64,000 bases of DNA, from NCBI GenBank assembly GCA_038740375.1, contig JAVYLW010000001.1, forward strand, positions 11,530 through 75,529. Reading direction: 5' to 3'. Source of the stretch: Candidatus Pacearchaeota archaeon (GTDB taxonomy: Archaea > Nanobdellota > Nanobdellia > Pacearchaeales > GW2011-AR1). Each line of letters starts with the position of its first letter. Positions within the stretch are counted from its first letter, which is position 1. A model generated the notes under the pieces. That model was not told where the DNA came from, did no database searches, and saw nothing but the letters and a program-made list of their open reading frames with translations. Shown piece after piece: positions 6,411-29,780 of the stretch. Position numbers and translations under genes: made by a program.

Positions 6411-6635
6411 ATGCTAAAAGAGGAACTAAAAAATACTGAAAAAGGTTCTAAAAAAATAAAGGCTAGAACAGTAACTGTAAAAGGAACTATAACAAAAAAT
6501 CAAAGAAAAGTTATTCAAAAATTAATAGGTCTGCTTGGAAGTAATGAACAAGATGTTGTAGGAAAAATATTAACCTTATGGCTTTATAATGAAGGATTTT
6601 TAAAAGCTAAAGAAGGAGGAAAAAGAATGATATGA
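6411..6635 (+). CDS. small basic protein, hypothetical
   Basis: 74 aa ORF whose stop overlaps the start of the giant surface protein gene (ATGA overlap at 6632). No recognisable domain. Confidence 0.3.
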   Translation: MLKEELKNTEKGSKKIKARTVTVKGTITKNQRKVIQKLIGLLGSNEQDVVGKILTLWLYNEGFLKAKEGGKRMI

Positions 6636-9600
6636 AAAAAATAATGATTTCAATAATAATAGCATTAATACTTTTTTCCCATATAAGTGCATCAGAAGAA
6701 GAGGAAAATATTCCAAAAATAAATAATCTAGAAAGTTTAAATTTAGAAAATAACATTACTGAAAATCCGATTATTGCAAACATTATAGAAGATATCTTAA
6801 TTGAAAACAATATAACAACATTTAATCAAAATAAAGATTTCTCAAATGATGACAAAACAAACATAAAAATAAATGAAACTATAATAACTCAAAATGAAAA
6901 AAATGAAACAGAAATGTCAGAAAATTCAGATACACCCAACAATTATAGTGAAGAAAATGAAAATTTAAGAATTATACACAAAAATATAACGGAAAGTGAA
7001 GAGTCAGAAAATTTAAAGGAAAGTCTAGAAGAAGAAAAAGATTTAGGTAATGAAAAAGAAAATCAAGAGAATAATGCTCTCATCCGAAACAACCAACGAG
7101 ATTCTGAAGAAGGAGGATATAACTACAATTATTTGTTCTTAACAAATATAAGTAATAACTCTATTTCTAATCCTCCTTCTCAGGATCATAATGAAAATGA
7201 AAAAGAAATAAAAAATCTTCAAGAAAAAATTTTTACAAAATGTATATTAAAAGAAAATCCGAATAATGGTTATGAAGGAATTTTATCAGGATGTAATAAT
7301 ATAATATTAGAAATTAATGAGATAAATGAAAATGAAAAAGAAATAAAAATAAGCTCTGAAGATGAAATAAACGAACCTTTTACAATATTCTTAGAAGTAC
7401 CAAAAATAAAAGATATTAATTCGTTAAAGATATTTTGGATAAATAATAATAAAGAAATAAGTGAAAAAAATTTTGAAGATATAGATTCAGATGGATATTA
7501 TGAAAAAGTTCTTTGGACAATTCCTCATTTGTCTAATCAGTATTACAAAATTATTTTTAATTTTACAAGAATAGAAAACAATGAAAAAAACAAAATGGAA
7601 TTAAATATAATATCTCCTTTAAATGAATCAGTATTGCAAAATCCAATACAGTTTATTTTTAATATTAGTTATTATAATTTAACAAATTTAGAGTGTAGTT
7701 TTTCAATTGACAACATTTTAAGTCTAGAAACAATAGGTATAGGATTAGAAAATTTAAGTATAACTTGGCCTGAAAATTTAGAAAATGGAAATCATGAATG
7801 GACATTTTTATGTAAAGATAAATCAAATGATAATATTAAGGATTCTATCTCAGGCAATTTCATAGTAAATGAAAATTTTTCAATAAATCCTTACAAAAAA
7901 GTATATTTTCTTGGAGAAAATGTATCTGTAAAAATATATTCTAAAAATAACACTTATATAGAATTAATCAACCCTAATAATATAAGAATTTACAACCAAA
8001 CATTATCAGGAATATATCCAAAAGAAATAAATCTAACAAGCACAAATTTTACCTTACCAGGAAAATATAAAATAAATATAACTACTGATTATTTTGCAAA
8101 ACCTTACTCATTGACAGAAGAAGTTAATTTAATAGAAATAAATTTTACCTCTAACAAAAAAAATTTAACAAGAGGAGAATTTATTGATTTTCAAATAATG
8201 ATAAACTCTCCTATTCCTAATTTTTGTTATTTTTTGTATTTTGGAGATAATAATCAAACAAACGAGTGTGTATTATCAAATTCATTACAAAAATCAATAA
8301 CATATGCTTATAAAAATCAAGGATTATATAATCCGAAATTAGAAATTAGAATAGACTCTATAAATCTAACCTTCAATATATCTGCAATTAATGTAACAAA
8401 CGTTATTGATACAGAAAATCCTATTATAACTCTATTAAACCCAAATGAAGATGCATATCTTAAAAATAATTCTGTAATTTTTTCTTATAAAGCAAAAGAT
8501 AATGTAAAAATCAGTAACTGCACATTCAGTTTGTATGAAGCTGTAGGAAATTACTGGAGTTATACTTATAATGAAAATAGTTTAATAAAAAGAATTATTA
8601 ATTCAACAATAACAAATGACGAAATAATACAGATTCAGATAAATTCTCTTCCAGAGAAAAACTATATATGGGAAGTAAATTGTTCTGATAATTCAACAAA
8701 TATTAATAAAAACTGGAGATTTTTCACAATTAATCTTTCAGAAAATTCTATAGGCACATCCTCAACAACAACTCAAATTTCAAATCAAAATAATTCTTAT
8801 AACATTAGTTATGAACAAAAACAAGAAGTTGAAAATGTTATTAATCTTTTAAATGATTTTTTAGAAAAACAAGAGAATTACACATTAGACCAAAAACAAG
8901 TATTAGAAGATCTTGAAATATCAAAAAATTTAAATTATTTCAAAAAAAGATTAATTCAAATAAGCCAAGATTTTTCTTATAATTTAGAGAATATCAAAGA
9001 TTCTAATTTAAAAGAACAAAGAAAACAAGAATTAATACAAGAATTTCAAAATATAAGCTTGCAAATACCTTTAGATTTAGAGATTATAAATCAAAAAGAG
9101 TTTATTAAAAATAGTTTATCTTTAGAATTAAAAACATTTATAAAAAATTATCTAAGTTTATATAACTTATTTTTTAAAGATTCTGAATTAAAAAAATTAG
9201 CTGAAGAAAATTTCAAAATACAAAATGATTTAGAAGTTTTAACAAATGTAAAACAAATTAGAATAAAGTATATAAATAAAACAATTGAAGAAACACTAGT
9301 TACAAAAAATATTAAAATAAAAAATGAGAGTTATGAAAAAATTTTAGAGGTTTTTCCAAAAGAAATTTATGAAAAATATAAAATAGAATTCTTAACTCCA
9401 AATGAAGAAGTAAATAATTCAGGAATATATGAGATAAATACAAATGATATAGAAAACAATAAAATTGTATACCTAATAAAAGAGCTTGTTGATTTAAAAG
9501 AATTAGAAAAAATAGATACTCTTTTATATAAAGAATTTATTATTAAAAAAAATAATAAAATAACAGGTTATTCTGTTTTAGAAATAAATTTTAGTAAATG

Positions 9601-10039
9601 GTCTTATTATATCACATTCTTATTTTTATTTGTAGTTGTTTTATATCTTTTAATATCATTATCTAAAAGTAGAAAAATTAAAAAATGGAAAAAACAAGAA
9701 GCTGCAAAAAAACTATTTTCTTTAATAAATCAAAGTAAAAAAATGATGAAAGAAAAAGAAATAGAAAATTTAAGAGATAACTACCATAAAATAAAAGAAT
9801 TATATCAGCAAGTTCCAAATGCATGTAAAAAATATGTTTATAAAGAAATTAAAAAAATTCAAGAATTTATAGATAAAAAAGAAATAGAAGAATTAATTAA
9901 AGAATTAGAAATCGCAAAAAAAGAGAGAAGAATTGAAGATGCAAAAAGAATATATGAAAGAATAAAAAGTGATTATTCAAGATTGCCAAAAAAAGAAAAG
10001 AAAAAAATAAATAACAAATTTTTTAAAAAAAAGATATAA
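6632..10039 (+). CDS. giant surface protein (signal peptide, N-glycosylation-sequon-rich ectodomain, C-terminal TM anchor, lysine-rich tail)
   Basis: 1135 aa. Hydrophobic leader MKKIMISIIIALILF. Very N/S/T-rich with dozens of NxS/T sequons. TM WSYYITFLFLFVVVLYLLISL near the C-terminus, followed by a K/E-rich coiled-coil tail. Confidence 0.6.
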   Translation: MKKIMISIIIALILFSHISASEEEENIPKINNLESLNLENNITENPIIANIIEDILIENNITTFNQNKDFSNDDKTNIKINETIITQNEKNETEMSENSDTPNNYSEENENLRIIHKNITESEESENLKESLEEEKDLGNEKENQENNALIRNNQRDSEEGGYNYNYLFLTNISNNSISNPPSQDHNENEKEIKNLQEKIFTKCILKENPNNGYEGILSGCNNIILEINEINENEKEIKISSEDEINEPFTIFLEVPKIKDINSLKIFWINNNKEISEKNFEDIDSDGYYEKVLWTIPHLSNQYYKIIFNFTRIENNEKNKMELNIISPLNESVLQNPIQFIFNISYYNLTNLECSFSIDNILSLETIGIGLENLSITWPENLENGNHEWTFLCKDKSNDNIKDSISGNFIVNENFSINPYKKVYFLGENVSVKIYSKNNTYIELINPNNIRIYNQTLSGIYPKEINLTSTNFTLPGKYKINITTDYFAKPYSLTEEVNLIEINFTSNKKNLTRGEFIDFQIMINSPIPNFCYFLYFGDNNQTNECVLSNSLQKSITYAYKNQGLYNPKLEIRIDSINLTFNISAINVTNVIDTENPIITLLNPNEDAYLKNNSVIFSYKAKDNVKISNCTFSLYEAVGNYWSYTYNENSLIKRIINSTITNDEIIQIQINSLPEKNYIWEVNCSDNSTNINKNWRFFTINLSENSIGTSSTTTQISNQNNSYNISYEQKQEVENVINLLNDFLEKQENYTLDQKQVLEDLEISKNLNYFKKRLIQISQDFSYNLENIKDSNLKEQRKQELIQEFQNISLQIPLDLEIINQKEFIKNSLSLELKTFIKNYLSLYNLFFKDSELKKLAEENFKIQNDLEVLTNVKQIRIKYINKTIEETLVTKNIKIKNESYEKILEVFPKEIYEKYKIEFLTPNEEVNNSGIYEINTNDIENNKIVYLIKELVDLKELEKIDTLLYKEFIIKKNNKITGYSVLEINFSKWSYYITFLFLFVVVLYLLISLSKSRKIKKWKKQEAAKKLFSLINQSKKMMKEKEIENLRDNYHKIKELYQQVPNACKKYVYKEIKKIQEFIDKKEIEELIKELEIAKKERRIEDAKRIYERIKSDYSRLPKKEKKKINNKFFKKKI

Positions 10040-13369: not shown

Positions 13370-13729
13370 AGATATTTTAAATTTTATATCTTAAATTAAG
13401 TTCTATATATTTCTACATTTTGTTTGGATATAATAAAAAACTAAAAAAACATTCCTTAGACTAAACGAAAAATCTTGCAGATATAGTTTTATATTTAATA
13501 AATAAAAACTTTTCAATATTTTAATAAAAAATAATAAAATATTTATAGTTTGATAGTTTAACTATAAAAAATAATTTTGATTTATATTCAAAACATAAAA
13601 TATTCATTTATAAAAATTTATGAAATATTTTCAAAAATTTTATAACAAAGCTAAATAAAATAAAAATATTTTTTATAATAAAAAAATGTAAAAATTAAAT
13701 AAATACATTTTTAATTTAATTAAATTCAA

Positions 13730-14158
13730 CTACTCTTTTTTTGCATTATTTAATCTAGGCATTTGAAAATGTGTTGGAAGATTTAACTCATCTTCTAAAG
13801 ATAATGCTTTAACATTACATTTTTGCATAATAAAATTAAATATAGGTATCCTGTAATCTTCTGAAATTTTTTTGTCTTTCCAATCTTTTAAAATAATTTT
13901 TATTTCATCTTTTTCAGGAAGAATAATTAGTATTCCATCAAATTCTATATTAGCAAAATCTTTAGAATAATTTATTTTAAAACTAAAAAAAACTTTTAGA
14001 GCCTTATCTTTTGAAAAAGGAATTTCTTCTTCTTTTATTTCCTTTATATCAATATTTTGAGAAACTTCTAAATTACCTTCTATATTTTCTACTCTTTCTC
14101 CTAAAATTTTTGATAGATTAAAACCTATTATTCTCATATTTAAAATTTTGTTCAACAA
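13730..14158 (-). CDS. hypothetical protein
   Basis: 142 aa ORF. The likely true start is the internal Met (MRIIGF...). No recognisable motif. Confidence 0.4.
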   Translation of the reverse strand: MLNKILNMRIIGFNLSKILGERVENIEGNLEVSQNIDIKEIKEEEIPFSKDKALKVFFSFKINYSKDFANIEFDGILIILPEKDEIKIILKDWKDKKISEDYRIPIFNFIMQKCNVKALSLEDELNLPTHFQMPRLNNAKKE

Positions 14159-14165
14159 TATTTAA

Positions 14166-14426
14166 CTATATCAAATCCTCTTCAGAAACAACAACAAAAT
14201 CACCAATTGCTATTATAGAGTTATATGGAATTAAAATATCTCCTTGTTGTGATCTTTCTAAATGTAATTGACTTGCATAATTTGTTTGATCTTTTATCAT
14301 AAGATGAATTAATTCACCAGTCCTCGTTTCAAATAAAATATCTTTAATTGTTCCAAGTTTCCTTCCTTCTTTTGTAACAACTGGTTTTCCTAAAATTTCT
14401 TTATGTGGTTTTTTCTCAATTGCCAT
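14166..14426 (-). CDS. PRC-barrel domain protein
   Basis: 86 aa. Pattern GKPVVTKEGRKLGTIKDILFETRTGELIHLMI matches the PRC-barrel fold signature (G..V....G..LG.V.D...D..TG.....V). Confidence 0.6.
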   Translation of the reverse strand: MAIEKKPHKEILGKPVVTKEGRKLGTIKDILFETRTGELIHLMIKDQTNYASQLHLERSQQGDILIPYNSIIAIGDFVVVSEEDLI

Positions 14427-14691
14427 ATATAGTTCATATTTAAAATTTATTTATAAAGTTTTCTATAAATTTTATATAATAATACAGTATAAAAATAAAA
14501 AAATAAAAATAAGAGTAGTTTTTATTTTAAAAAAAGAAATACCAATTCAAAAAAATAATCTTTAATTATAATATTAATAATTACTTAAAAAGTCTTATTT
14601 TATATTAGTTAATCAAAATTAAAAAAATTAAGTAAAAAATTAAACAAAATAATAGTTTTAAAATTGTACGAACAATTCAATAGATAAATAA

Positions 14692-14722
14692 CCTCCCCCC
14701 TATTATTTCCTATGGAAAAAAA
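14692..14722 (-). repeat. ORB-like origin recognition box 1 (dyad TTCCTATGGAAA plus G-string)
   Basis: Plus strand reads CCTCCCCCCTATTATTTCCTATGGAAAAAAA. The reverse complement TTTTTTTCCATAGGAAATAATAGGGGGGAGG matches box 2. Confidence 0.55.
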
Positions 14723-15073
14723 TATATAAAAATTATAAGATTCTAATCAATTTTTTAATTTTTATTTATAAATATTTATATATTTTAAAATATATATTAA
14801 ATATATATTAAAATATAATATTTAAATCAAACAAATATCATATATAATTAACCATTACAATATTATAACATTTTTTGTTTATCAGAGTGGACAACATCAT
14901 ATCTATGAATTAAATTTCTCATTAAATCTTATAAAATCTATTTTAATTTTTTATTTTATTAACAAATATTTTATTATTTTTTTAACTTAATTTTTTATAT
15001 TTAATTTTAAAATATTTATTTTTAAAATTAATAAAACTAATTTTTCGCTTGATTATTAGTTTTTTAATTTCAT

Positions 15074-15100
15074 TTTTCCATAAGAAAAAATGGTGTGTGA
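15074..15100 (+). repeat. ORB-like origin recognition box 2 (inverted relative to box 1)
   Basis: TTTTCCATAAGAAAAAATGGTGTGTGA. Same TTTTCCATA[G/A]GAAA...G-rich architecture as box 1, in opposite orientation and about 350 bp away. Confidence 0.55.
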
Positions 15101-15295
15101 TAATAATATATATTTTTATTCTAAAAAATTTAAATCAATACAAAATTCGAATATATTATTATTATTTATATTTTATATTTATATTTTTTACATAAGAAAT
15201 TTAGGTTATAATATTCTTTAAAATAATTATGTTTATAAATATTAATTTTTTAAATAATACATCAATAAAAATTTAAATAAATTGGTGATAATTAA

Positions 15296-16492
15296 ATGGC
15301 TAATTTAGATAAGATTTTTGACTCTGTTGAAGATAGAAGTTTATTTAGAAATAAATATGTATTACAATCAAATTATAATCCCGAAGATATTCTTCATAGA
15401 GATAAAGAAATAGAACACATAGCTTCTATACTTGCACCTAGTTTACTTGGTCAAAAAACGAGTAATCTATTTATTTATGGAAAAACAGGTACTGGAAAAA
15501 CTCTTTCTGTTCAGCATGTTGCAAGTGAGATGATGAAAAGAGGAAAAGGAGGATTACTTAGAATAGAATATATAAATTGTAAATTGAAAAAAGTAGCTGA
15601 TACTGAATATAGAATATTTGCTGAATTAATAAAAAAATTAGGTGGTGATGTTCCTGCTACAGGTTTACCTACTGATCAAGTTTATAAGAAATTTTTAGAA
15701 TTATTAGAAAAAAATAATGAAAAAATATTCATCATAATATTAGATGAGATAGATCAGGCAGTTAAAAAAATATCTGATGATTTTTTATATAACCTTTTAA
15801 GATTAAATTCAGAGCTTGACAAAACACAAATAACTATAGTAGGTATATCTAATGACGCTAAATTTTTAGAAATGATAGATCCAAGGGTAAAAAGTTCTTT
15901 ATCTGAAGAAGAAATGGTTTTTCCTCCTTATAATGCTTTACAATTACAAGATATTTTAAGAAAAAGAGCTGAAGAATCATTTAAGCCAGGAGTTGTTTCA
16001 GAAGGAGTTATAGCTAAATGTGCTGCATATGCTGCTAGAGTTCATGGTGATGCAAGACGTGCACTTGATTTACTTAGAGTTGCTGGAGAAATTGCTGAAA
16101 GATCTTCTAGTAGAAAAATTGAAATGAAACATATTGATGAAGCAAATGAAAAGATAGAAAGAGATAAATTGATAGATATAGTAGAAACTGCACCTAAACA
16201 ATTCCAATTAGTTCTTTTTACTATACTTGACCTCTCTGGTATAACAAAAAAAGGAATATTTACTGGAGATGTATTTAATTATTATGATAATCTTTGTAAA
16301 AGATTAAATTGTGAAACTCTTACTCAAAGAAGAGTTAGTGATATACTAGCAGATCTTGATATGCTTGGTTTAATAAATGCAAGAGTTATTTCTAAAGGTA
16401 GACAAGGAAGAATGAGGGAAATTAAACTTGCAATTCCAGATAATATAATTGAAAAAACAAGAGAAATTTTAATTAAAAGTTTAGATATTTAA
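15296..16492 (+). CDS. cdc6: Orc1/Cdc6 replication initiator
   Basis: 398 aa. Walker A GKTGTGKT, Walker B IIILDEID, sensor motifs and C-terminal winged helix. N-terminal HRDKEIE...L motif typical of archaeal Orc1/Cdc6. Confidence 0.9.
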   Translation: MANLDKIFDSVEDRSLFRNKYVLQSNYNPEDILHRDKEIEHIASILAPSLLGQKTSNLFIYGKTGTGKTLSVQHVASEMMKRGKGGLLRIEYINCKLKKVADTEYRIFAELIKKLGGDVPATGLPTDQVYKKFLELLEKNNEKIFIIILDEIDQAVKKISDDFLYNLLRLNSELDKTQITIVGISNDAKFLEMIDPRVKSSLSEEEMVFPPYNALQLQDILRKRAEESFKPGVVSEGVIAKCAAYAARVHGDARRALDLLRVAGEIAERSSSRKIEMKHIDEANEKIERDKLIDIVETAPKQFQLVLFTILDLSGITKKGIFTGDVFNYYDNLCKRLNCETLTQRRVSDILADLDMLGLINARVISKGRQGRMREIKLAIPDNIIEKTREILIKSLDI

Positions 16493-16515
16493 TTTTAATT
16501 TAAGGAGGTAATAAA

Positions 16516-18099
16516 TTGGAACAAAATATATTAAAATTATTTATTAAAAAAGGTTTTCTTTTAGATAAGGAAATGCTTGATTTTTTATCTGAATTAAAAG
16601 ATGAAGATGTTGCAAATGAAATAATAAATAAAATAGCTGTTGTTTCAAAACAAAAACTAATAACAAAAAATTTAGTGAATCAAAATTTTGATAAAATAAA
16701 ACCTTTTTTGTTTGAACTTGATTTAGAAAAAAAGAAATTAGTAGAAAAATTTTTTGTAAATGTTTCTATATCAGTAGAAGTAAAAAAAGAAGTTAGTTAT
16801 GAAATTAATAATAAAGAAGAAAAAAATATTGAAGATGAAATAAGACCTATCAAAGTAATTAATTCTCCAGTAAACTTAGCTCAAAAAATTGAAGTTAAAG
16901 ATTTTGTAAGATATTTTAGAAGTAGATATAATTTTATGAAAAATTTATTATCACAAAAAAAAGAACTTGAAAATCTTTCTTCAATTGATAAAATAAGTTT
17001 TAATAAAAAAATATTTTCTATAATAGGAATTGTTACAAATAAATTAGTAACTAAATCAAAAAATATTATTTTAGATGTTGAAGATCTAACAGGCAAGGCT
17101 AGATTACTAATAAATCAAACAAAAGAAGATGTTTATAATAAATCTAAAGAGATTGTTTTAGATGATGTTATTGGTTTTAAATGTTCAGGTTCTGGAGACT
17201 TTTTATACGTAAATGATATAATTTATCCAGATAGTTTTTTGAAAGAGAAACATAGAAGTGATAGGGAGGTTTATGCATTATTTATTTCTGATATTCATGT
17301 AGGAAGCGACATGTTTTTAGAAAAAAATTTTTCTAAATTTATTAATTGGTTAAGAGGTATAGATTGTGATGATAATCAAAGAGAATTGTTAAAAAAAATT
17401 AAATATCTTTTTATTATAGGAGACACTATAGATGGTGTAGGTATTTATCCTGGACAAGAAAAGTTTCTTCAAATAAAAGATATAAAAAAACAATATGAAA
17501 AATTAGCAGAATATTTAGATATGATTCCAAAATATATAACTATAATTATGTGTCCAGGACAACATGACGGTGTTAGAGTTGCTGAGCCACAACCACCTAT
17601 AGGTGAAGATTTTGGATATCCTTTACATAAAATTTCTAATTTACACCTTGTTAGTAACCCTTCTTTTATAGAAATTGAAGCAAAAGAAGGAAAAAGTGGA
17701 ATAAAAGTTTTAATGTATCATGGTGCAAGCATGCATCATATTATTGGAGAAATTGAAGAATTAAGATTAATAAATGGCCATCATTATCCTGCTAAAGTAG
17801 TTAAACATTTATTGTATAGACGTCATTTAGCTCCTATGCATGGAGATATGATTTACATTCCTAGTTCTGATGAAGATCATTTAATTATCAAAGAAGTTCC
17901 AGATATTATTGCTACTGGAGATCTTCATAAGACTGATGTGGATAATTATAATGGAACTTTGATAATTTGTAGTTCTTGTTGGCAATCTATCACTCCTTTT
18001 GAAGAAAAAGTAGGTAATTTGCCAGATCCTTGTAAAGTCCCTATTTTAAATTTAAAAACAGGAGCAATAAAAATATTAAATTTTAACGAAGATGAATAA
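16516..18099 (+). CDS. dp1: DNA polymerase D small subunit DP1 (calcineurin-like phosphoesterase/exonuclease)
   Basis: 527 aa. TTG start 6 nt after SD AAGGAGGT. Phosphoesterase motifs FISDIHVGSD, GDTIDG, ATGDLH. Lies directly downstream of cdc6. Confidence 0.85.
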   Translation: MEQNILKLFIKKGFLLDKEMLDFLSELKDEDVANEIINKIAVVSKQKLITKNLVNQNFDKIKPFLFELDLEKKKLVEKFFVNVSISVEVKKEVSYEINNKEEKNIEDEIRPIKVINSPVNLAQKIEVKDFVRYFRSRYNFMKNLLSQKKELENLSSIDKISFNKKIFSIIGIVTNKLVTKSKNIILDVEDLTGKARLLINQTKEDVYNKSKEIVLDDVIGFKCSGSGDFLYVNDIIYPDSFLKEKHRSDREVYALFISDIHVGSDMFLEKNFSKFINWLRGIDCDDNQRELLKKIKYLFIIGDTIDGVGIYPGQEKFLQIKDIKKQYEKLAEYLDMIPKYITIIMCPGQHDGVRVAEPQPPIGEDFGYPLHKISNLHLVSNPSFIEIEAKEGKSGIKVLMYHGASMHHIIGEIEELRLINGHHYPAKVVKHLLYRRHLAPMHGDMIYIPSSDEDHLIIKEVPDIIATGDLHKTDVDNYNGTLIICSSCWQSITPFEEKVGNLPDPCKVPILNLKTGAIKILNFNEDE

Positions 18100-18153
18100 A
18101 ATAGCAAATTCTTTTTAATTTAAAAATATTAAGTTTTTTAATTTATAAATAGA

Positions 18154-18639
18154 ATGAAAATAGTAAATTTGTGTATAAGTAATAAAAACAAAGATAAGTT
18201 TTTGTTCATAAAAAGAAATAAACATCCGTTTCAAGGATATTTTGGTATGCTTGGAGGTAAAATAGAAGATGGTGAAGATATTTATAATGCTGCAAGTAGA
18301 GAATTATTTGAAGAATCAGGTATCATTTCCGAGGGAGAATATCTTGGAAAATGTATAGAAAAGATAATTGAAAATAAGAATATTTTATTTGAGTCTGAAA
18401 TATATTTTTTCCATTTTATTATTAATGAGGATATAAATTTTTATTCAAGTTTTGAAGGGGATCTAAGATGGATTTCTATTAAAGAATTTTCAAATTATAG
18501 AATAATTCCAAGTGATCCTTTAATGATTGATAGTTTTTTAAATAAAAAAGCTACAGCTACTTTTAGCATAATTGAAAAAATTAATGAAAATTATTTTCAA
18601 AAAAAATTTAAAAAATTAGAAAAAATAACTAAAATTTAA
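18154..18639 (+). CDS. Nudix hydrolase
   Basis: 161 aa. Perfect Nudix box GGKIEDGEDIYNAASRELFEESGI (Gx5Ex7REUxEExGU). Confidence 0.7.
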   Translation: MKIVNLCISNKNKDKFLFIKRNKHPFQGYFGMLGGKIEDGEDIYNAASRELFEESGIISEGEYLGKCIEKIIENKNILFESEIYFFHFIINEDINFYSSFEGDLRWISIKEFSNYRIIPSDPLMIDSFLNKKATATFSIIEKINENYFQKKFKKLEKITKI

Positions 18640-18771
18640 TAATGACAACCTACAAAATATAATAATTTTATAAATATTTATTAAAACTATAAAGTGATTA
18701 TAAAAATTTATTAATCAAAAATATAATTTCTTATTACTTTAAACTAAAATTTTGTAATAAAATTAGCTAAA

Positions 18772-21700
18772 ATGAATTTTCATTATACTACGGAAAATTA
18801 TTTTTTTAATCTTTCAAAAGAGATAGATAAAAATTACGAAATTGCTAAGCTTGCTCGTGCAAAAGGTCTTGATCCAAAATATGAAGTAGAAGTTCCACTT
18901 GCTTTAACTATGGCTGCAAAAGTAGTTAAATTAATTGCTACGATTTATCCACAATTAGATAATGAGGAGATTATTAATAGAATTCTTGAACTTGAAAAAA
19001 AATACGGACCTCTCGATAGTTCTGTTAGTTTTAAAATTGCAGAGGAAATTGCTCAAGGAAGATTTTGTAGTTTTGAAAACCAACTAGAGGCAATGGATGC
19101 TGGAATAAGAGTTGGTTTTGCTTATATTACTTTAGGTGTTGTAAGTTCTCCTATAGAAGGTTTTACAGGTCTGAAATTAGGTCGTACTCATGATGGTAAA
19201 AATTATATTAAAGCATTTTTTTCAGGCCCTATTCGAAGTGCTGGAACAACTGCTGCTTGTGTTGCTTTAATGCTTATAGATTATATAAGGCAGATTTTCG
19301 GTTATGCAAGATACGATCCTACTGAACAAGAAGCAAAAAGAACTGTAACAGAATTATATGATTATCACGAGAGAGTTACTAACTTACAATATCTTCCAAC
19401 AGAAGAGGAAGCTTATTTTGTTGCAAAAAATATGCCTTTTCAAATTGATGGAGATCCTACTGAAAAAAAAGAAGTTTCTAATTTTAAAGATTTACCTAGA
19501 ATTGAAACTAATTTTATTAGAGGAGGTTTTTGTCTAGTTATTGGAGAAGGAATATGTCAAAAAGCTAAAAAAGGATTAAGATTATTGAAAAACATTCAAA
19601 AAAACGGTTTTAAAATTAACGATTGGGATTGGTTAGAATCTTATGTTGAACTTCATGAGAAAAGAGATATGGGAAAAACCGATTCTAGTCCTACATATAT
19701 AAAAGATTTAGTTGCAGGAAGACCTGTATTTGGTTATCCTGGAAAAGGTTTTAGGTTTAGATATGGAAGAAGCAGGGTTAGCGGATTTTCTGCAGCTAGT
19801 ATTCATCCAGCAACAATGGGAATTACAAACGATTTTATCGCAACAGGAACTCAATTAAAAATAGAAAGACCTTCAAAGGGTTGTTGTATTACTCCTTGTG
19901 ATAAAATAGAAGGCCCTATTGTTAAATTAAAAAACGGAAGTGTTAAAAAACCTAAAACTTACGAAGAAGCTAAGAACTTATATAATGATATAACTGAAAT
20001 TATATATCTTGGAGATTTACTTTTTTCTCTTGGTGATGTTATTAATAGAAATGCTGTTTTAATTAAGCCAGGTTATGTTCCAGAGTGGTGGAATCTAGAA
20101 CTTGAGAAATGCGGTGGAAAAGTTGATGATTTTTATAATGTGAGTTTAGAAGATGCAGTTAATCTCTCTTTAAAATATAATATACCTTTACATCCAAATT
20201 TTATATATTATTGGAATGAAATTAACCTTGAGCAATTTTTAGGATTAGTTGATTTTTTAATGCATTCTCGAGTAATTGATGGAAAATTATTACTTCCTTA
20301 TAATAGTTCTGAAAAAGAAAGATTTAAAGTTGGAAAACGAGCTTTAGAACTAGTAGGAGTCTGTCACGATGTTACTATAGAAAATGTTGTTTTAAATAAA
20401 GATGAAACAAAAAGTTTTTTGATTAATTTAGGATATGATTCTAATTATGAAGGAGAAATCAATTTAAATATTGATTTTAAAGAACCAATATCTGAAGTTT
20501 TAGAAATTATTAACAAGTTATCAAAATTTAAGATTAAGGATAAATCAGGAGAATTTATTGGTGCAAGAATGGGAAGGCCTGAAAAAGCAAAAATTAGGAA
20601 ATTAACTGGAAGTCCTTGTGTTTTATTTCCTGTTGGAGAAGAGGGAGGGAGATTAAGAAGTGTTAACGAAGCAGAAAATATAGGTTTTGTAAACGGAGAA
20701 TTTCCTTTTAATTTTTGTAATAAATGTAAAAGAGAAACTATTTATAATGTTTGTGAAATTTGTGGAGAAAAGACAGAAGCTAAATATTATTGCAAAATTT
20801 GTGATAGAGAAATTAAAAATGGAAAAATTTGCCATTTACATAATATTGGTTCAAATTTCAAAAAGATGAAAATAGATTTAAAACATTATTTTGAAATTGC
20901 AAAAAATAAATTAGGGTTTCTTAAAATTGATGTTCCTACTTTGATTAAAGGTGTTAGAGGAACAAGTTCTGAGAATCATAATGTAGAAAATTTAGTAAAA
21001 GGAATATTAAGAGCAAAATATGGTCTTACAGTAAATAAGGATGGAACTATAAGATACGATACAACAGAACTTCCTTTAACACATTTTAAACCTATAGAAA
21101 TTAATGTATCAATTGAGAAATTGAGAGAACTAGGTTATACTAAGGATATTTACGGAAAAGATTTGACATCTGATTTTCAAATATTAGAATTAAAACCACA
21201 CGATGTTATTTTACCTTGTAATAATGAATGTGGCGATGAAAAGGCAGACGATGTATTTTTTAACGCAACAAAATTTATTGATGAATTATTAGAAAAATTT
21301 TATGGTCTACCTAAGTTTTATAATTTAAAGAAAAAAGAAGATTTAATAGGTCATTTAGGAGTTTGTATGGCTCCCCATAATTGTGCAGGAGTAATTTGTA
21401 GATTTTTAGGTTTTTCTAAAGTACAAGGCCTTTTAGCAAGTCCTTATATGCATGCTGCAATGAGAAGAGATTGTGATGGAGACGAGGCTGCTTTGATGCT
21501 TTTACTCGATGTTCTTATTAATTTTTCAAGAGCTTTTTTACCATCTCATAGAGGAGGAACTCAAGATGCTCCTTTGGTGTTAAATGGAAGAATTAATGCA
21601 AAAGAAGTCGATGATCAAATTCTTGATTTTGAATTAGTTTATAATTATCCTTTAGAGTTATACGAGAAAGCAGAAAAAAAAGTTCATTCAGGAGAAATAA

Positions 21701-22224
21701 AAATTGAAACAGTAAGACAAAGACTTGCAAACGATAAAGACCCTTATTATAATACAGGTTTCACACATGATTGTTACAATTTTAATTTAGGAGTAAACTG
21801 CAGTTCATATAAAATAATTCCTACTATGCAAGAGAAAGTTGAAAAACAAATGGAATTGTGTGTTAAGCTTAGAAGCGTTAATCAAGGAGATGTTGCAAGA
21901 TTAATAATAGACAGACATTTTATGAGAGATTTAAAAGGTAATCTCAGGAAATTTTCTCAACAAAATTTTAGATGTGGTAAATGTAACGAAATTTATAGAA
22001 GACCTCCTTTAAATGGAAAATGTTCAAAGTGTGGAAATCCAAAACTTATTTTTACTATCTCTTATGGAAGTATTATAAAATATCTTGAACCTGCATTAAG
22101 TTTGACAAAAAATTACGATGTTCCTTCTTATATACAACAGGATTTAGAATTAACTAAAAAATATATTGAAAGCATATTTGGTAAAGAGACTGAAAAACAA
22201 GTTTCTATAAATGAGTGGTTTTAA
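18772..22224 (+). CDS. dp2: DNA polymerase D large (catalytic) subunit DP2
   Basis: 1150 aa. N-terminal region (YEIAKLARAKGLDPKYEVEVPLALTMAAKV) and multiple CxxC zinc-binding clusters typical of PolD DP2. No intein apparent. Confidence 0.9.
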   Translation: MNFHYTTENYFFNLSKEIDKNYEIAKLARAKGLDPKYEVEVPLALTMAAKVVKLIATIYPQLDNEEIINRILELEKKYGPLDSSVSFKIAEEIAQGRFCSFENQLEAMDAGIRVGFAYITLGVVSSPIEGFTGLKLGRTHDGKNYIKAFFSGPIRSAGTTAACVALMLIDYIRQIFGYARYDPTEQEAKRTVTELYDYHERVTNLQYLPTEEEAYFVAKNMPFQIDGDPTEKKEVSNFKDLPRIETNFIRGGFCLVIGEGICQKAKKGLRLLKNIQKNGFKINDWDWLESYVELHEKRDMGKTDSSPTYIKDLVAGRPVFGYPGKGFRFRYGRSRVSGFSAASIHPATMGITNDFIATGTQLKIERPSKGCCITPCDKIEGPIVKLKNGSVKKPKTYEEAKNLYNDITEIIYLGDLLFSLGDVINRNAVLIKPGYVPEWWNLELEKCGGKVDDFYNVSLEDAVNLSLKYNIPLHPNFIYYWNEINLEQFLGLVDFLMHSRVIDGKLLLPYNSSEKERFKVGKRALELVGVCHDVTIENVVLNKDETKSFLINLGYDSNYEGEINLNIDFKEPISEVLEIINKLSKFKIKDKSGEFIGARMGRPEKAKIRKLTGSPCVLFPVGEEGGRLRSVNEAENIGFVNGEFPFNFCNKCKRETIYNVCEICGEKTEAKYYCKICDREIKNGKICHLHNIGSNFKKMKIDLKHYFEIAKNKLGFLKIDVPTLIKGVRGTSSENHNVENLVKGILRAKYGLTVNKDGTIRYDTTELPLTHFKPIEINVSIEKLRELGYTKDIYGKDLTSDFQILELKPHDVILPCNNECGDEKADDVFFNATKFIDELLEKFYGLPKFYNLKKKEDLIGHLGVCMAPHNCAGVICRFLGFSKVQGLLASPYMHAAMRRDCDGDEAALMLLLDVLINFSRAFLPSHRGGTQDAPLVLNGRINAKEVDDQILDFELVYNYPLELYEKAEKKVHSGEIKIETVRQRLANDKDPYYNTGFTHDCYNFNLGVNCSSYKIIPTMQEKVEKQMELCVKLRSVNQGDVARLIIDRHFMRDLKGNLRKFSQQNFRCGKCNEIYRRPPLNGKCSKCGNPKLIFTISYGSIIKYLEPALSLTKNYDVPSYIQQDLELTKKYIESIFGKETEKQVSINEWF

Positions 22225-22264
22225 ATAAATATAATTTTAAAAAACTATTAGCTTAGAATAATTT

Positions 22265-23026
22265 TTAATTTCTATTTAATAGATTAAACAATTTTCCAAA
22301 TTTGTATAGTCTATTTTCTTTATTATTATAAATTATAACTTGGAATTTTTTAATAGTGTTACCATTAATAATAAATTTATTAATAAATTTTGAGTCATAT
22401 AAGATATTGTTGAGATTATATCCTATCGAAATGGGACTGAAACTAGGAATAATATAAATTTCAAAATTTTTCCAAAATCCATACAAAAAACAACTATATT
22501 TTTCTTTTTTATATTTATCAGAAAGAGTTATTGAAGGATGCAAATGTCCTAAAATAAGAGTTTTACAATTTAATACCCATTCTTTTTTGAATAAATTTCC
22601 ATGTAAAAAACAAATATTCTTATATTTATAATAATAATTTAATTGAATTTTCTTTTTTTTTATTATATTTATTATATAATTATCATGATTTCCTCTAATA
22701 ATAATAATTTTTTTGCATTTTAGATATAAAAAATCTAATAATTTTAAAATTTCTTTCCATTCAGAATAAATATTTTTAGAAAATTCATGTTTAAGATCAC
22801 CAAGAATTATTATTTTTTCTAAAATTACTTTATTCTTCTTTAAAATATAAAAAATTCTATTTAATTTTTCAATTATTTCTTTGTATTGATATTTTGGAAT
22901 AAGAACTATGTTCTCTAAACTTTCCTCATATCCTAAGTGCAAGTCAGAAATAACTAAAATTTTATCATCAATTAATAAAGAATCTTCTAAAATTTCTATT
23001 TTAACATTAATTTTATTTTTAACCAT
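22265..23026 (-). CDS. metallophosphoesterase (Lhr-associated MPE-type nuclease candidate)
   Basis: 253 aa. Calcineurin-like motifs DLHLGYE, GDLKHE, GNHDN, GHLHP. Immediately downstream of the Lhr gene on the same strand. Confidence 0.7.
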   Translation of the reverse strand: MVKNKINVKIEILEDSLLIDDKILVISDLHLGYEESLENIVLIPKYQYKEIIEKLNRIFYILKKNKVILEKIIILGDLKHEFSKNIYSEWKEILKLLDFLYLKCKKIIIIRGNHDNYIINIIKKKKIQLNYYYKYKNICFLHGNLFKKEWVLNCKTLILGHLHPSITLSDKYKKEKYSCFLYGFWKNFEIYIIPSFSPISIGYNLNNILYDSKFINKFIINGNTIKKFQVIIYNNKENRLYKFGKLFNLLNRN

Positions 23027-23135
23027 TTTTAAAAATTTATATGAAATTTATAAATAATACTTACGTTATATATTTTAATTGTTTATGTTTTAAACATTGT
23101 TTTAAACAGGTGTTTAAACAGTTAATTTTACCTTT

Positions 23136-25751
23136 TTATTCTTTATTACTAATTTCGCGAATTATTTCAGCATGAATTCTCTTTAAAAATTCTATTCTAT
23201 CCTCTATTTTAAGTAAATCACTATATCCTTGTAAAACTAAATTTGTTGCAAATGGAGATGGTAATTTAGTTGTTATCTTTTCAATTATCACATCTTTATT
23301 TTTTATCCAGTTTAATACTTTCTCAGAATTTTTTATGTCCATTAAATCTTCTAAAACTTCACGTCTAGCTTCTTTTAATATAGGAAAATCTTTAGATATT
23401 TTGTATATAGCATTTAAAAGAAAAAAGGATTTCATTTGTTGTTTTCCAACAGTTTTTCTTTTTCCTTTATAATTTTTAAGTATCATCAAAGATCTTGCAG
23501 CACAATGTCTAAACCTTCTTTTTAATATTTCTGTTTTAGAAATAGCTTCTTCACAAACTTTCCTTAAATTTTCACTATTCAAAAATTTTAAAGCCTCATC
23601 TACCTTGATATTTTCACCAGCAAAATAAAATCCATTATCTGATATTCCTATTTCAATATCTCTACCGATTTTTTGAGCCATTAAATATGCAATTGCTCTA
23701 GAAAGACAATCATTTACTCTTCTACCATAGAGAGAATGAAATATTACATATTTTTTTTCACCATTATAAATTTCAATTAAAAGTCTTTTTTCATGAGGAA
23801 TTTTTGCATATCTATATTGTTCATTAAAATAATTGTATATTCCAAGTGAAACAGATTCATTTACATAACAATAATCACTTATAAATCTAATAATCTCTTC
23901 TTGAGAATATCTTCTTTCAAATTTTTCATTTAATAGTCTTCTAAACCGGTTTATTTCCTGTGCAGATTCAAACGATAATGGAAGCATTTCAGAAAACCAA
24001 GAGGGAATAGTTGGATTTTTTCTTGTTTCAGCTTTGACATAAGCAACCATTCCACGAGTATATAAAAATTGATATTTTTTTCCTCCAAGAACAAAAACAT
24101 CTCCTGGCTTCATTTTTTCTAAAAATTCTTCATCAATAAAACCTATTCTTTTTCCAACATATTCTCCACTTCCAATTATAACAGAAACAAAACTTTCTTC
24201 AGGAATTGTTCCTATATTAGTCATATAAATTACTCTTGCAAGTTTTCCTTTTTTTCCAACTTGTTTTGTTTTTTCATCATACCATATCTTTGCATAAACA
24301 TTTTTATGTTCAAGAGCATATTCTCCAGAAAGATAAGATATTACTGACATAAAATCTTCTTTGGAAAGTTCAGAATAACAATAGCTTTTTCTTATTACGT
24401 TTAACATTTCATCCAAATTCCATGTTTTTTGTATACACATTCCATATATTTGTTGAGATAAAACATCAAGACAATTTTTTGGTATATATATATTATCTAT
24501 CTTCTTTTCTTTTACTTCTTTATTTAATATGCTACATTCAACTAAGTCATCTCTATCTAATACTATGAATCTACCTTTTGAAATATCATCTAGTTTATGT
24601 CCACTTCTTCCAATTCTTTGTATAGCTCTTGCTGAACTTTTTGGACTTCCAAGTAATATCACTAAGTCTATTGAACCTATATCAATTCCAAGCTCTAAAG
24701 ATGTTGAAGTTACAACAACCTTAAGTTCACCTTTTCTTAATTTTTCTTCAATTTCAAATCTATGCTCTTTTGAGAGTGAAGAGTGATGTGCACCTATATT
24801 TGAATTCAGATTTTCAGAATAATTTTTTGGAAACATTTCTTTTAAATGATGAACAACTCTTTCAGTTGCAGAGCGAGTATTTGTAAATATAAGTGTAGTT
24901 TTGTGTTCTTGTATTAACTTATCGATAAGTTCGTATAATGAATTATGAATATCTTCTCTTGTTGTTTCAATTAAATCATTAGTTCCTGTTAATACATTAA
25001 CATCTATTTTTTTTATTGATAAAACTTCAGCAATTAAACATTCTCTATCACTTCCAACCAGGAAATTAGCTACTTCTATAAGAGGAGAAATAGTTGCAGA
25101 AAGCCCTATTCTGACAGGAGTTATTTTTGAAATATTTTCCAATCTTTCAAGAGAAATTGATTGATAAACTCCTCTTTTATTTCCAAGAGAATGTATTTCA
25201 TCAATAATTATGAATTCAACACCGTAAAATATTTCAATAAACTTTTTTGTGGTTAGAGAAATAGCTAAACTTTCAGGAGTTGTTATTAATATGTGAGGAG
25301 GATTTTTAAGCATTTTAGTTTTTTCATTAGAGGAAGTATCTCCTGTTTTTATAGCAATTCTTATTTTTTGCAAAAAAATTCCATTTTTTTCAGCAATTTT
25401 ATATATTTCTCCAAGAGGTCTAATAAGATTTACAAAAATGTCATTATTAAGAGCTTTTAAAGGACTAGAATAAATACAATAAATTTTTTTTTCTAATTCA
25501 TTTCTTTTAGCAAGAATAACTAAGTAATTTAAAATTGACAAAAAACTAGTTAAAGTTTTACCATTTCCAGTAGGTGCAGATATCAATATATTTTTTCTTT
25601 CATGAATGGGTATTACTCCATATAATTGGCTTTCTGAAAAATCTTTAAACCTTGAGAAAAACCATTCTTTAACTAAAGGGTCTAGAACTCTAAGTATCTC
25701 TTCATGATTTCTTTTTTCTGCTTTAGTATATAAATTATTTTCTTTTTTCAT
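23136..25751 (-). CDS. lhr: Lhr-type SF2 DNA helicase (Lhr-core)
   Basis: 871 aa. Walker A APTGNGKT, DEIH box (IIIDEIHSL), motif VI QRIGRSGH and the Lhr-specific C-terminal extension. N-terminal F..F..P..Q motif. Confidence 0.8.
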   Translation of the reverse strand: MKKENNLYTKAEKRNHEEILRVLDPLVKEWFFSRFKDFSESQLYGVIPIHERKNILISAPTGNGKTLTSFLSILNYLVILAKRNELEKKIYCIYSSPLKALNNDIFVNLIRPLGEIYKIAEKNGIFLQKIRIAIKTGDTSSNEKTKMLKNPPHILITTPESLAISLTTKKFIEIFYGVEFIIIDEIHSLGNKRGVYQSISLERLENISKITPVRIGLSATISPLIEVANFLVGSDRECLIAEVLSIKKIDVNVLTGTNDLIETTREDIHNSLYELIDKLIQEHKTTLIFTNTRSATERVVHHLKEMFPKNYSENLNSNIGAHHSSLSKEHRFEIEEKLRKGELKVVVTSTSLELGIDIGSIDLVILLGSPKSSARAIQRIGRSGHKLDDISKGRFIVLDRDDLVECSILNKEVKEKKIDNIYIPKNCLDVLSQQIYGMCIQKTWNLDEMLNVIRKSYCYSELSKEDFMSVISYLSGEYALEHKNVYAKIWYDEKTKQVGKKGKLARVIYMTNIGTIPEESFVSVIIGSGEYVGKRIGFIDEEFLEKMKPGDVFVLGGKKYQFLYTRGMVAYVKAETRKNPTIPSWFSEMLPLSFESAQEINRFRRLLNEKFERRYSQEEIIRFISDYCYVNESVSLGIYNYFNEQYRYAKIPHEKRLLIEIYNGEKKYVIFHSLYGRRVNDCLSRAIAYLMAQKIGRDIEIGISDNGFYFAGENIKVDEALKFLNSENLRKVCEEAISKTEILKRRFRHCAARSLMILKNYKGKRKTVGKQQMKSFFLLNAIYKISKDFPILKEARREVLEDLMDIKNSEKVLNWIKNKDVIIEKITTKLPSPFATNLVLQGYSDLLKIEDRIEFLKRIHAEIIREISNKE

Positions 25752-26002
25752 TTTTTAATTTAAAAACTATAGAAATATAATTTATAAAATTATAGAACTA
25801 TTCTATTTAAAAATTTATAAAATATTTTCGTAATTTGAGTCTTATACGTTCAAGAATAGATTATAACTATAAAGATCTTTTGATTTTACTCATGATTCTG
25901 TAATACTTTTATTTATTGTTCTTTCAATTTTTTGTTCATTAACAAAAATAACATAAATCTGTACTTTTTTAATGAAATAAAAATTATTTATATTATTGTT
26001 AT

Positions 26003-27880: not shown

Positions 27881-27933
27881 GATTTATCAAATATAAACAA
27901 ATTTAAAAACTTAATGATTTTTAATTTAGGATA

Positions 27934-28203
27934 ATGAAGTTGAGTGAGGATAAAAAAAACCGAATTATTGAACAAATTTTATTTTTTTTATATCATTCTT
28001 TTCCTAAAGAGCCATACACTGCAGAAATAGCAAGAGAAATAGCAAGAGATGAGGAATTTGTTAAAAGACTGCTTTTTGAATTAAAAGAAAAGAATTTAGT
28101 TATTCCAATAAGAAAAAATAACAAAGGAATTGCTTATTGTAAAAGATTAAGATGGAGATTATCTAACAGAGTTTATGATTTCTATAAATCAAAAGATAAA
28201 TAG
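27934..28203 (+). CDS. small winged-helix DNA-binding protein
   Basis: 89 aa. Helix-turn-helix like segment AEIAREIARDEEFVKRLLFELKEKNLV and a basic wing. Confidence 0.4.
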   Translation: MKLSEDKKNRIIEQILFFLYHSFPKEPYTAEIAREIARDEEFVKRLLFELKEKNLVIPIRKNNKGIAYCKRLRWRLSNRVYDFYKSKDK

Positions 28204-28369
28204 CTTTTATTTTGTTTTAAATTCAGATTGAAAAATTAACTGTTCACCTTTTATTCTGAACTAAATCTATTTTTTAATTATTTTTATAATTAATAATAAG
28301 TTTAATATATAAGCATAACTATTTTAATATATAACAACATTTAAATAACGTTTTTTTGATATTCTACTT

Positions 28370-29239
28370 ATGGAAAATGATCCTATAAAATTAGCTTTTC
28401 AAAAAGTTAAACAAGATATTATTAATTTAGAGAATCGTGTAAATACTTTAAACAATGATATAAAAAACGTATATTTTGAATTTTATAAAGTCTCTGAAAA
28501 TATTGATATTATTGTTTCAAGATTAAACGATTTAAATAAAGAATTTAATGATTTTAAGATAATTATAAAAAATTTGCATGAAGATTTAAAGAACCAAGGA
28601 CTATCTTTTTTGTCTCAGAGAAATATATCTGTAGATACTTCTTTAGATGAAAATTATATTCCAACAAATAATTCGATAAACCAACATATAAATTCAACAT
28701 TTTTAGATAATACAACAAATAATCCAACAATTCCACAGGAAATAAAGGGGTTAAAAAGCAAAAATATTGATTTTTCCACAGGAAATAAAGGGGTTACAAC
28801 AGACAAACAAACAATTAAACAGACAGATATACCGACAAATATTTTGAATGAATCTAACTCTAAAAATGTTGATTTCGATTTTAATAATATCTCTATAGAA
28901 AACAATATTAAGGAAGCTAAAGTAATGCTTGATTCTTTAGATCGTCTAAAAAAAGAAATAAGACAAAAATTTAAGCGTTTAACTTCTCAAGAAATGTTAG
29001 TTTTTTCAACAATATATCAACAAGAAGAGGAGGATTCTGAAGAGAATACTTATAGAAAAATAGCAAAAAAATTAAAATTATCAGAATCTTCTATAAGAGA
29101 CTATACTCTAAGACTTATTTCTAAAGGAATACCTATTAAAAAAAGAAAAATTAATAATAAAAAAGTTATTCTATATATTTCTCCAGAACTTAAAAAAATA
29201 GCAACTCTATCAACAATAATAAAATTAAGAGAACTGTAA
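28370..29239 (+). CDS. coiled-coil protein with low-complexity N/T-rich linker and C-terminal HTH domain
   Basis: 289 aa. N-terminal coiled coil, N/T/Q-rich middle, C-terminal EENTYRKIAKKLKLSESSIRDYTLRLISKG HTH-like segment. Confidence 0.5.
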   Translation: MENDPIKLAFQKVKQDIINLENRVNTLNNDIKNVYFEFYKVSENIDIIVSRLNDLNKEFNDFKIIIKNLHEDLKNQGLSFLSQRNISVDTSLDENYIPTNNSINQHINSTFLDNTTNNPTIPQEIKGLKSKNIDFSTGNKGVTTDKQTIKQTDIPTNILNESNSKNVDFDFNNISIENNIKEAKVMLDSLDRLKKEIRQKFKRLTSQEMLVFSTIYQQEEEDSEENTYRKIAKKLKLSESSIRDYTLRLISKGIPIKKRKINNKKVILYISPELKKIATLSTIIKLREL

Positions 29240-29777: not shown

Positions 29778-29780
29778 ATT

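Follow-up and report, generated by a model that had tools for sequence, protein, structure and literature searches.

The stretch analysed here (the window) comprises 64,000 nucleotides of contig JAVYLW010000001.1 from a Candidatus Pacearchaeota archaeon (assembly GCA_038740375.1, positions 11,530 to 75,529), with a GC content of about 23%. Between a gene for a PRC-barrel protein and the divergently transcribed gene for the replication initiator Orc1/Cdc6 (cdc6) lies an AT-rich intergenic spacer, which is proposed below to be the chromosomal replication origin of this genome. Only two other gaps of the window exceed the spacer in length (median gap 95 bp), and it carries inverted elements of the origin recognition box (ORB) type on either side of a candidate duplex unwinding element (DUE). 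The features of the locus are as follows.

14166-14426, minus strand: PRC-barrel protein gene (Pfam), divergent neighbour of the putative origin, conserved in relatives.
14427-15295, no strand: intergenic spacer containing the putative origin, 869 bp, 11.3% GC, delimited from the list of open reading frames (ORFs).
14692-14722, minus strand: distal ORB (box 1), reverse complement TTTTTTTCCATAGGAAATAATAGGGGGGAGG.
14718-15067, no strand: candidate DUE, 9.4% GC, between the boxes.
15074-15100, plus strand: proximal ORB (box 2), TTTTCCATAAGAAAAAATGGTGTGTGA.
15187-15211, plus strand: degenerate third ORB or mini-ORB (box 3), TTTACATAAGAAATTTAGGTTATAA; 10.1 bits over its full length and 11.3 bits over its core with the position weight matrix (PWM) described below.
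15232-15239, plus strand: TATA-like box of the predicted cdc6 promoter, TTTATAAA, 57-64 nt upstream of the ATG.
15296-16492, plus strand: orc1/cdc6 initiator gene of Orc1-1 type, 398 aa, with Pfam domains AAA, Cdc6_lid and Cdc6_C.

Both principal boxes are of the ORB type, in which a TTCCA..GAAA dyad is followed after 4-5 nt by a G-rich tail. In box 1 the dyad TTTCC-TAT-GGAAA (14706-14718) is a perfect 5-3-5 repeat, and the G-string GGGGGGAGG (14692-14700) is directed away from the AT-rich centre; this box fits the distal class of relatives, TTCCATAnGAAAnnAnAGGGTGAG. Box 2 directs its G-rich tail GGTGTGTG toward cdc6 and aligns with an invariant TTCCAT..GAAA....GGTGT..G block of relatives. The two boxes stand in opposite orientation with 351 bp in between, their tails pointing outward. 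The initial annotation of this DNA had described two inverted boxes about 350 bp apart at 14692-14722 and 15074-15100, in a spacer of 870 bp (869 bp as measured); the coordinates and the sequence were borne out, and the degenerate box 3 and an ORB pair at 28.7 kb are additions to that description. A PWM scan of the spacer detects these three boxes only, and no swarm of mini-ORBs. The proximal ORBs are situated 110-220 bp upstream of the cdc6 start, on the upstream side of the TATA-like block TTTATAAA, which is invariant in an alignment of the six closest spacers; a Shine-Dalgarno (SD)-like GGTGAT precedes cdc6 at 15284-15289, and the PRC-barrel gene has a TATA-like box of its own at 14450-14457. 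No Rfam family was found in the spacer, either in a scan of the whole window at gathering thresholds or at E<=5.

The best PDB matches of the encoded Cdc6 are Orc1-1 of S. solfataricus (2qby_A, E 1.7e-108) and ORC1 of A. pernix (2v1u_A, E 1.3e-92), both of which are structures solved on ORB DNA. ORC1/Cdc6 is a single-copy core gene in the phylum, and complete Nanobdellota genomes are by convention rotated to this gene, without ORB analysis (bioRxiv 10.64898/2026.05.13.725050). An origin next to the single orc1/cdc6 is at the expected place in a Nanobdellota genome.

In DNA of this composition, inverted repeats could simply be a chance product of low complexity. A repeat search of the spacer returns 101 AT-rich inverted pairs, among which the box pair ranks 15th and is unremarkable on its own; the repeat search was dropped as a test, the pair being lost in this background. 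The consensus proposed in the initial annotation was rejected as a search pattern on grounds of circularity, and it did point to the copies at 28.7 kb. Because the inverted pair is unremarkable in so AT-rich a spacer and a search with its own consensus is circular, an independent PWM was built. For this, 130 loci encoding relatives of Cdc6 were fetched (111 non-redundant loci were used for motif density), and the seed was taken from those relatives whose Cdc6 is at least 50% identical, as each exact TTCC-N4-GAAA found in the 320 nt that precede cdc6. The resulting PWM contains 34 sites from relatives, with the window excluded, and its consensus is TTTCCATAGGAAATAAAGGTGTGGG. Positions that the seed left unconstrained are also conserved: A at +4 in 34/34 sites, GG at +16/+17 in 88% and 85%, and T at +18 and +20 in 74% each.

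On both strands of the window, this PWM gives four matches above 20 bits, and the maximum of 30 Markov-1 shuffles is 18.3 bits. Two of the four are the spacer boxes (box 2, 29.5 bits; box 1, 24.3 bits at 14694-14718), and the other two, at 28730-28754 and 28773-28797, lie inside a protein-coding gene, here called ORF X. The motif is not scattered over random intergenic sites, a distribution that the initial annotation had named as contrary to an origin. Among the 111 related loci, matches above 16 bits occur at 2.06/kb in the 1 kb upstream of cdc6 and at 0.040/kb elsewhere, an enrichment of about 50-fold; 87 of the upstream matches are in minus orientation, which was not used in building the PWM. 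In the 11-21-kb loci of six relatives, matches above 15 bits are confined to the cdc6 spacer and ORF X. Scores of 24-29 bits with a window-free PWM, set against the shuffle maximum, and orthologous boxes in dozens of relatives leave a chance origin of the boxes with next to no credibility, and we count it as already refuted.

The layout was surveyed in 31 relatives with at least 50% identical Cdc6 and sufficient upstream sequence. At least one ORB is present upstream of cdc6 in 29 of the 31, and 24 show a divergent layout in which a minus copy precedes a plus copy and the tails face outward. The gap between the boxes in these relatives has a median of 228-264 bp and a GC content of 17-20%, compared with 32-36% for the locus. 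When the six closest spacers are aligned, box 2 and box 3 match two conserved proximal ORBs, box 3 corresponding to the second of these, about 99 bp downstream of the first.

Gene order around the spacer is also conserved among relatives. On one side cdc6, DP1 and DP2 (the last two encoding the subunits of family D DNA polymerase, PolD) are transcribed away from the spacer; on the other side the PRC-barrel gene and a gene for a protein of about 134 aa run in the outward direction, followed at some distance by genes for a Metallophos protein, an Lhr helicase and a protein of unknown function that point back toward the spacer, and then by a gene for about 90 aa and ORF X, again in the outward direction. 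In the window, the segment from about 13700 to 22260 (PRC-barrel neighbour to DP2, putative origin included) is inverted relative to the block from Metallophos to ORF X (22265-30413), as seen by comparison with four relatives (L132, L133, L134 and L136), in which ORF X lies on the PRC side of the spacer and TctA beside DP2. Judged from gene order, the rearrangement of the window is an inversion that spans the putative origin.

Two observations concern relatives rather than the window. In L074 (10990-11180), and also in L011 (about +4844 to +4912 from the cdc6 start), a second intergenic ORB cluster of two to three copies lies about 5 kb downstream of the cdc6 start, with inverted copies around a short AT-rich core, between the genes for a TctA transporter and a family B DNA polymerase; these are GC-richer relatives with about 50% identical Cdc6, and the cluster may be a second origin-like site. 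In L134 (1-1547), the Cdc6 gene contains an intein (Intein_splicing and LAGLIDADG in precomputed Pfam matches).

The DNA between box 1 and box 2 is the least stable of the window. In a nearest-neighbour stability scan, the least stable 350 bp of the window are 14718-15067, which is the inter-box segment, and the least stable 100 bp are 14722-14821 (3% GC), adjoining box 1. Low duplex stability between the boxes is supportive rather than unique, because other intergenic stretches come close. For strand asymmetry, the raw GC skew and cumulative skew of the window have several local minima and track gene orientation, and they are uninformative alone. Transcription-corrected skew was computed from the GC excess at third codon positions (GC3) of each gene, with the coding-strand bias removed and the remainder projected on the plus strand. 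The corrected cumulative curve declines throughout the first 14.4 kb, has its lowest point between the PRC-barrel gene and cdc6, and climbs afterwards. The best single GC3 switch point directly precedes cdc6, with a statistic that is attained in 97 of 10,000 permutations (p = 0.0097); within the 64-kb window, the corrected cumulative skew does not switch elsewhere, the other outcome that the initial annotation had named as contrary to an origin.

This combination of features resembles the oriC1 of Sulfolobus (Saccharolobus), in which inverted ORB2 and ORB3 flank an AT-rich DUE and are both essential, and in which each ORB binds an Orc1-1 monomer with defined polarity, ATP-Orc1-1 being sufficient for MCM recruitment (PMC12141716). 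As in the Sulfolobus arrangement (ORB3-DUE-ORB2 plus ORB1), there are three ORBs here, two of them inverted around an AT-rich DUE; the ORBs consist of a dyad and a G-rich tail, and the locus adjoins the gene for its cognate Orc1-1-type initiator. Unlike in Sulfolobus, the tail of the proximal boxes reads GGTGTG(n)G and is not a pure G run, the AT-richness of the DUE is extreme (3-9% GC in a genome of about 23% GC), and only one initiator paralogue is expected in this phylum. The relatives' PWM also recognises more distant ORBs of established binding capacity. Fragments carrying ORB1, ORB2 and ORB3 of P. furiosus bind purified Cdc6 in gel shifts, and an ORB1 core mutant does not (PMC1904270); on these fragments (sequences from PMC1904270) the PWM gives 20.6, 14.5 and 14.2 bits in the correct orientation, compared with -9.7 for the ORB1 core mutant and -5.1 for the control fragment. 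GAAA and the G-rich tail are separated by 4-5 nt in the boxes described here, compared with 9 nt in Pyrococcus ORB1.

An alternative is that the boxes are only operators, for Orc1/Cdc6 or another factor, at the divergent cdc6 and PRC promoters, and that replication begins elsewhere or without a fixed origin. The location of the proximal boxes, 110-220 bp upstream of the cdc6 ATG and beside a conserved TATA-like box, is what would be expected of operators, and origin-independent replication is described for Thermococcus (PMC5663688). An operator would have no need for a conserved opposite box 230-350 bp off, across the least stable DNA of the region, and the corrected GC3 skew switches at the spacer. 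Furthermore, in every archaeon tested so far, such a layout beside an Orc1-1-type gene is an active origin (PMC12141716; PMC1904270), and autoregulation is compatible with origin function. An exclusive operator role for the boxes is therefore improbable.

Thus, we infer, with a probability of roughly 85%, that chromosome replication in this Pacearchaeota archaeon has its origin in the spacer 14427-15295, an origin of the oriC1 type defined by Orc1-1. The sequence features that characterise an oriC1 are found together here: ORBs, an inverted pair around an AT-rich DUE, an adjacent Orc1-1-type gene, conservation of the motif combined with its rarity elsewhere, and, within the 64-kb window, a skew switch. 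The proposal in the initial annotation that ORB-like boxes bracketing an AT-rich DUE beside cdc6 mark a probable origin accords with the PWM, the layout in relatives, the duplex stability and the corrected skew. By homology with characterised systems, monomers of the single Orc1/Cdc6, encoded directly downstream, would bind in a defined polarity to the three ORBs, with contacts of the winged helix to the TTCCA..GAAA dyad and of the initiator-specific motif (ISM) of the AAA+ domain to the G-rich tail. The distal (minus) and proximal (plus) boxes, with tails outward, would bracket about 350 bp of 9% GC DNA, and this inter-box segment would be the site of duplex melting and MCM loading by ATP-bound Orc1/Cdc6. 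The same binding events would probably also autoregulate a cdc6-DP1 operon.

Several points weigh against identification of the spacer as the origin. The segment 30589-30938 is nearly as unstable as the inter-box segment (dG of -0.976 compared with -0.969 per bp), the raw GC skew has a deeper local minimum near 40 kb, and the spacing of the boxes here (351 bp) is longer than the 228-264 bp of relatives. The third box (15187-15211) is degenerate. The skew test is confined to 64 kb with a left arm of 14 kb and is only moderately significant, and one long gene (6632-10039) contributes much of the corrected signal. In addition, some archaea, T. kodakarensis among them, are viable without their ORB-bearing oriC (PMC5663688), and given this example an origin-like locus does not prove use.

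An origin beside cdc6 was to be expected; the unexpected extra is a second conserved ORB pair inside a nearby gene, ORF X, as follows.

28370-29239, plus strand: ORF X, encoding a coiled coil, a disordered linker and a MarR-like winged helix-turn-helix (wHTH), with the ORB pair in the linker region.
28730-28754, plus strand: intragenic ORB copy 1, ATTCCACAGGAAATAAAGGGGTTAA, translated IPQEIKGL, PWM 29.4 bits.
28773-28797, plus strand: intragenic ORB copy 2, TTTCCACAGGAAATAAAGGGGTTAC, translated FSTGNKGV, PWM 32.1 bits, the best match of the window.

The copies are direct repeats of TTCCACAGGAAATAAAGGGGTTA, 43 nt apart, and because of this distance they are in different reading frames. ORF X belongs to a DPANN family of more than 1300 members. 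In an alignment of 30 sequences, the peptides PTVPQEIxGLK and STGNEGVPTD are nearly invariant within an otherwise variable linker. The AlphaFold model comprises an N-terminal helix (4-83) and a C-terminal MarR-like wHTH, with a linker between them (98-172) in which the boxes lie and for which the predicted local distance difference test (pLDDT) score is below 50; Foldseek returns matches to MarR-family proteins. A sequence search of the PDB with ORF X gave nothing specific, and the fold search gave MarR-family regulators. Assignment of ORF X as a replication-specific winged-helix protein (WhiP/Cdt1-like or RPA32-C-like) was discarded, as Pfam gives only weak generic HTH matches.

In ten homologues with 28-70% amino-acid identity, the synonymous sites of the box region are all frozen. 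The codons are Ser TCC in 10/10, Gly GGA in 10/10, and Gly GGG in 10/10 and 8/8, together with Pro CCA, Leu TTA, Asp GAC and Thr ACA (8/8 each). Residues of equal conservation in the wHTH domain use three to five codons each, and in the genomes TCC accounts for 1-6% of Ser codons and GGG for 4-34% of Gly codons. Since rare codons are frozen in the boxes and the wHTH codons vary, selection at the ORF X boxes therefore acts on the DNA (or RNA) sequence and not on the peptide. A peptide repeat as the cause of the two copies is ruled out by their different frames and by the frozen rare codons TCC and GGG. An overlapping antisense ORF may contribute to the freezing of codons, for all seven genomes have one antisense frame that stays open over 62-123 aa; this frame reads LSVCLSVC across an (ACAG)n tract, which makes it most simply a by-product, and it would not explain the match to the ORB matrix.

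That tract is itself an observation of note in the relatives L131-L136, where, about 20-60 nt past the second ORB, a TDRQTDRQTD peptide is encoded by an (ACAG)n-like run (ACA GAC AGA CAG ...) with frozen codons; the copy in the window (28798-28840) is degenerate. The tract being frozen, nucleotide-level constraint therefore reaches beyond the two ORBs, to about 150 nt in total.

The spacing of 43 nt is kept in L001, L131-L134 and L136, and the more distant L005 and L058 keep one copy. ORF X is located about 3-14 kb from the origin in 10 of 11 genomes (13.5 kb here, 3-10 kb in relatives), and its boxes are always directed away from the DUE, as are the origin boxes on the same side. The ORB4 element of Aeropyrum pernix oriC1, from the ORC1-ORB4 co-crystal of Gaudier et al. 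of 2007 (2V1U), reportedly reads approximately TCTCCACAGGAAACGGAGGGGT. On this reading ORB4 would share its dyad, and a distance of 4 nt to GGGGT, with the ORF X copies (TTCCACAGGAAATAAAGGGGT); A. pernix is phylogenetically remote (Thermoproteota as opposed to DPANN).

A parallel is offered by the Thermococcales, in which Cdc6 is bound, in vivo as well as in vitro, by a conserved cluster of ORBs and mini-ORBs within dp1 (Matsunaga et al., 2007; PMC1904270). In both lineages a second, lineage-conserved ORB cluster resides in a protein-coding gene no more than a few kb from the origin, dp1 there and ORF X here. DP1 (16516-18099) contains no PWM match above 8 bits in the window, and there is none in the DP1 of relatives. 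In contrast to the Thermococcales cluster, ORF X and cdc6 lie on opposite sides of the origin in relatives, and no swarm of mini-ORBs is present. Binding of Orc1/Cdc6 at the ORF X site is likely, and the pair is most likely, by analogy with the dp1 cluster, an accessory Orc1/Cdc6-binding site. A fuller proposal is favoured at slightly better than even odds. In it, the pair forms a conserved accessory module for Orc1/Cdc6 binding that is embedded within the gene of a MarR-like regulator, and one 20-mer, read in two frames, gives rise to the VPQEIxGLK and STGNEGV motifs of the disordered linker, which would be by-products of selection on the DNA site. Such a module could delimit the origin on its outer side or engage it in looping, or it could titrate the single initiator; it could also act as a roadblock of Orc1, linking expression of the regulator to occupancy by the initiator. 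Because the synonymous sites are frozen, the function of the intragenic ORB sites is open to testing.

The ORF X pair (28730-28797), together with the AT-rich, gene-poor region downstream, could alternatively be the real origin or a second one, with the cluster upstream of cdc6 as the accessory. It is ranked here as the two best ORB matches (32.1 and 29.4 bits), with synonymous sites frozen in 10 homologues, and it is followed by long AT-rich non-coding stretches (29240-29780, 30414-30907 and 31862-32940) that include the second and third least stable 350-bp segments. The arrangement of the pair is not that of an origin: the copies are direct rather than inverted, with 18 bp of coding sequence and no AT-rich element between them. 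The corrected skew has its minimum at 14.4-15.3 kb and not at 28.7 kb, a single Orc1/Cdc6 and a genome of about 0.7 Mb make one origin sufficient, and the intragenic dp1 cluster of the Thermococcales binds Cdc6, yet initiation maps to oriC (PMC1904270). A transfer of the origin function to ORF X is very doubtful, and a second origin there is unlikely because the copies are direct, no AT-rich element separates them and the skew minimum is elsewhere.

Downstream of cdc6, the putative origin adjoins genes for PolD, as follows.

16516-18099, plus strand: PolD small subunit DP1 (Pfam), TTG start, 23 nt after the cdc6 stop codon.
18154-18639, plus strand: Nudix hydrolase gene (Pfam), between DP1 and DP2.
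18772-22224, plus strand: PolD large subunit DP2 (Pfam PolC_DP2_N, central and catalytic domains).

The 23-nt gap between cdc6 and DP1, the SD sequence (AAGGAGGT at 16502-16509) and the TTG start, all described in the initial annotation, hold on inspection of the sequence, and an alignment that runs from residue 1 with a relative's DP1 (64% identity) speaks for the TTG start. Its assignment of the downstream genes to a Nudix protein and then the PolD large subunit is confirmed by Pfam. The operon looks like one limited to cdc6-DP1, because the Nudix gene and DP2 have TATA-like boxes of their own. The same annotation had likened the locus to the compact replication island of Thermococcales. In this comparison the gene order oriC-cdc6-dp1-dp2 and the presence of inverted long ORBs in the origin are shared with Pyrococcus and other Thermococcales, whereas the Nudix gene inserted between DP1 and DP2 and the lack of ORBs in dp1 set the Pacearchaeota locus apart. 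The Nudix gene is missing in L132 and in one further relative locus, where cdc6, DP1 and DP2 are contiguous, and on this comparison its insertion is lineage-specific. In L132, an NT5C domain is fused to the N-terminus of DP2, which suggests a recurrent association of nucleotide-sanitising enzymes with PolD.

Long non-coding stretches also occur elsewhere in the window. The gap between the convergent stop codons of ORF X and a gene for 210 aa (29781-30413) spans 29240-29780; a convergent gap of 420-540 bp of non-coding DNA after ORF X is conserved in six genomes. It contains two invariant blocks, the small palindrome TTCGTTGTAACGAAT (at about 29374-29388 in the window) and TAACTCTCACTTTTCC (at about 29665-29680, partly repeated at about 29752), and it may be a non-coding RNA or a protein-binding region. 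The sole Rfam match in this gap, to Pistol, was dismissed as being below threshold (19 bits, where the gathering score is 34.5). The ORF X block is followed downstream by unusually long non-coding stretches of 11-19% GC with small ORFs (30414-30907, 31205-31519 and 31862-32940); relatives have similar gene-poor stretches there, and a gene for a tyrosine recombinase frequently follows a few kb beyond. Between two plus-strand genes, 50565-52180 (1616 bp, 22% GC) forms the longest gap without ORFs in the window, and it has no Rfam or tRNA match.

To our knowledge, no DPANN replication origin has been characterised, and neither ORBs in DPANN nor the STGNEGV motif turned up in a search of the literature. 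The analysis provides an explicit ORB consensus for Pacearchaeota and neighbouring lineages, TTCCAyArGAAA-N4-GGTGT, and a conserved architecture of one distal box and two proximal boxes about 99 bp apart, with an AT-rich centre. The matrix could be used for placing origins in DPANN metagenome-assembled genomes (MAGs), and from there for peak-to-trough estimates of growth rate from metagenomes. The ORF X pair would be a second, independent example of initiator sites in coding sequence near an origin, and the module, if true, would be the DPANN counterpart of the unexplained dp1 cluster of Thermococcales. For the archaea themselves, the similarity to oriC1 suggests that the Orc1-1/ORB system has been retained almost unchanged in these reduced genomes.

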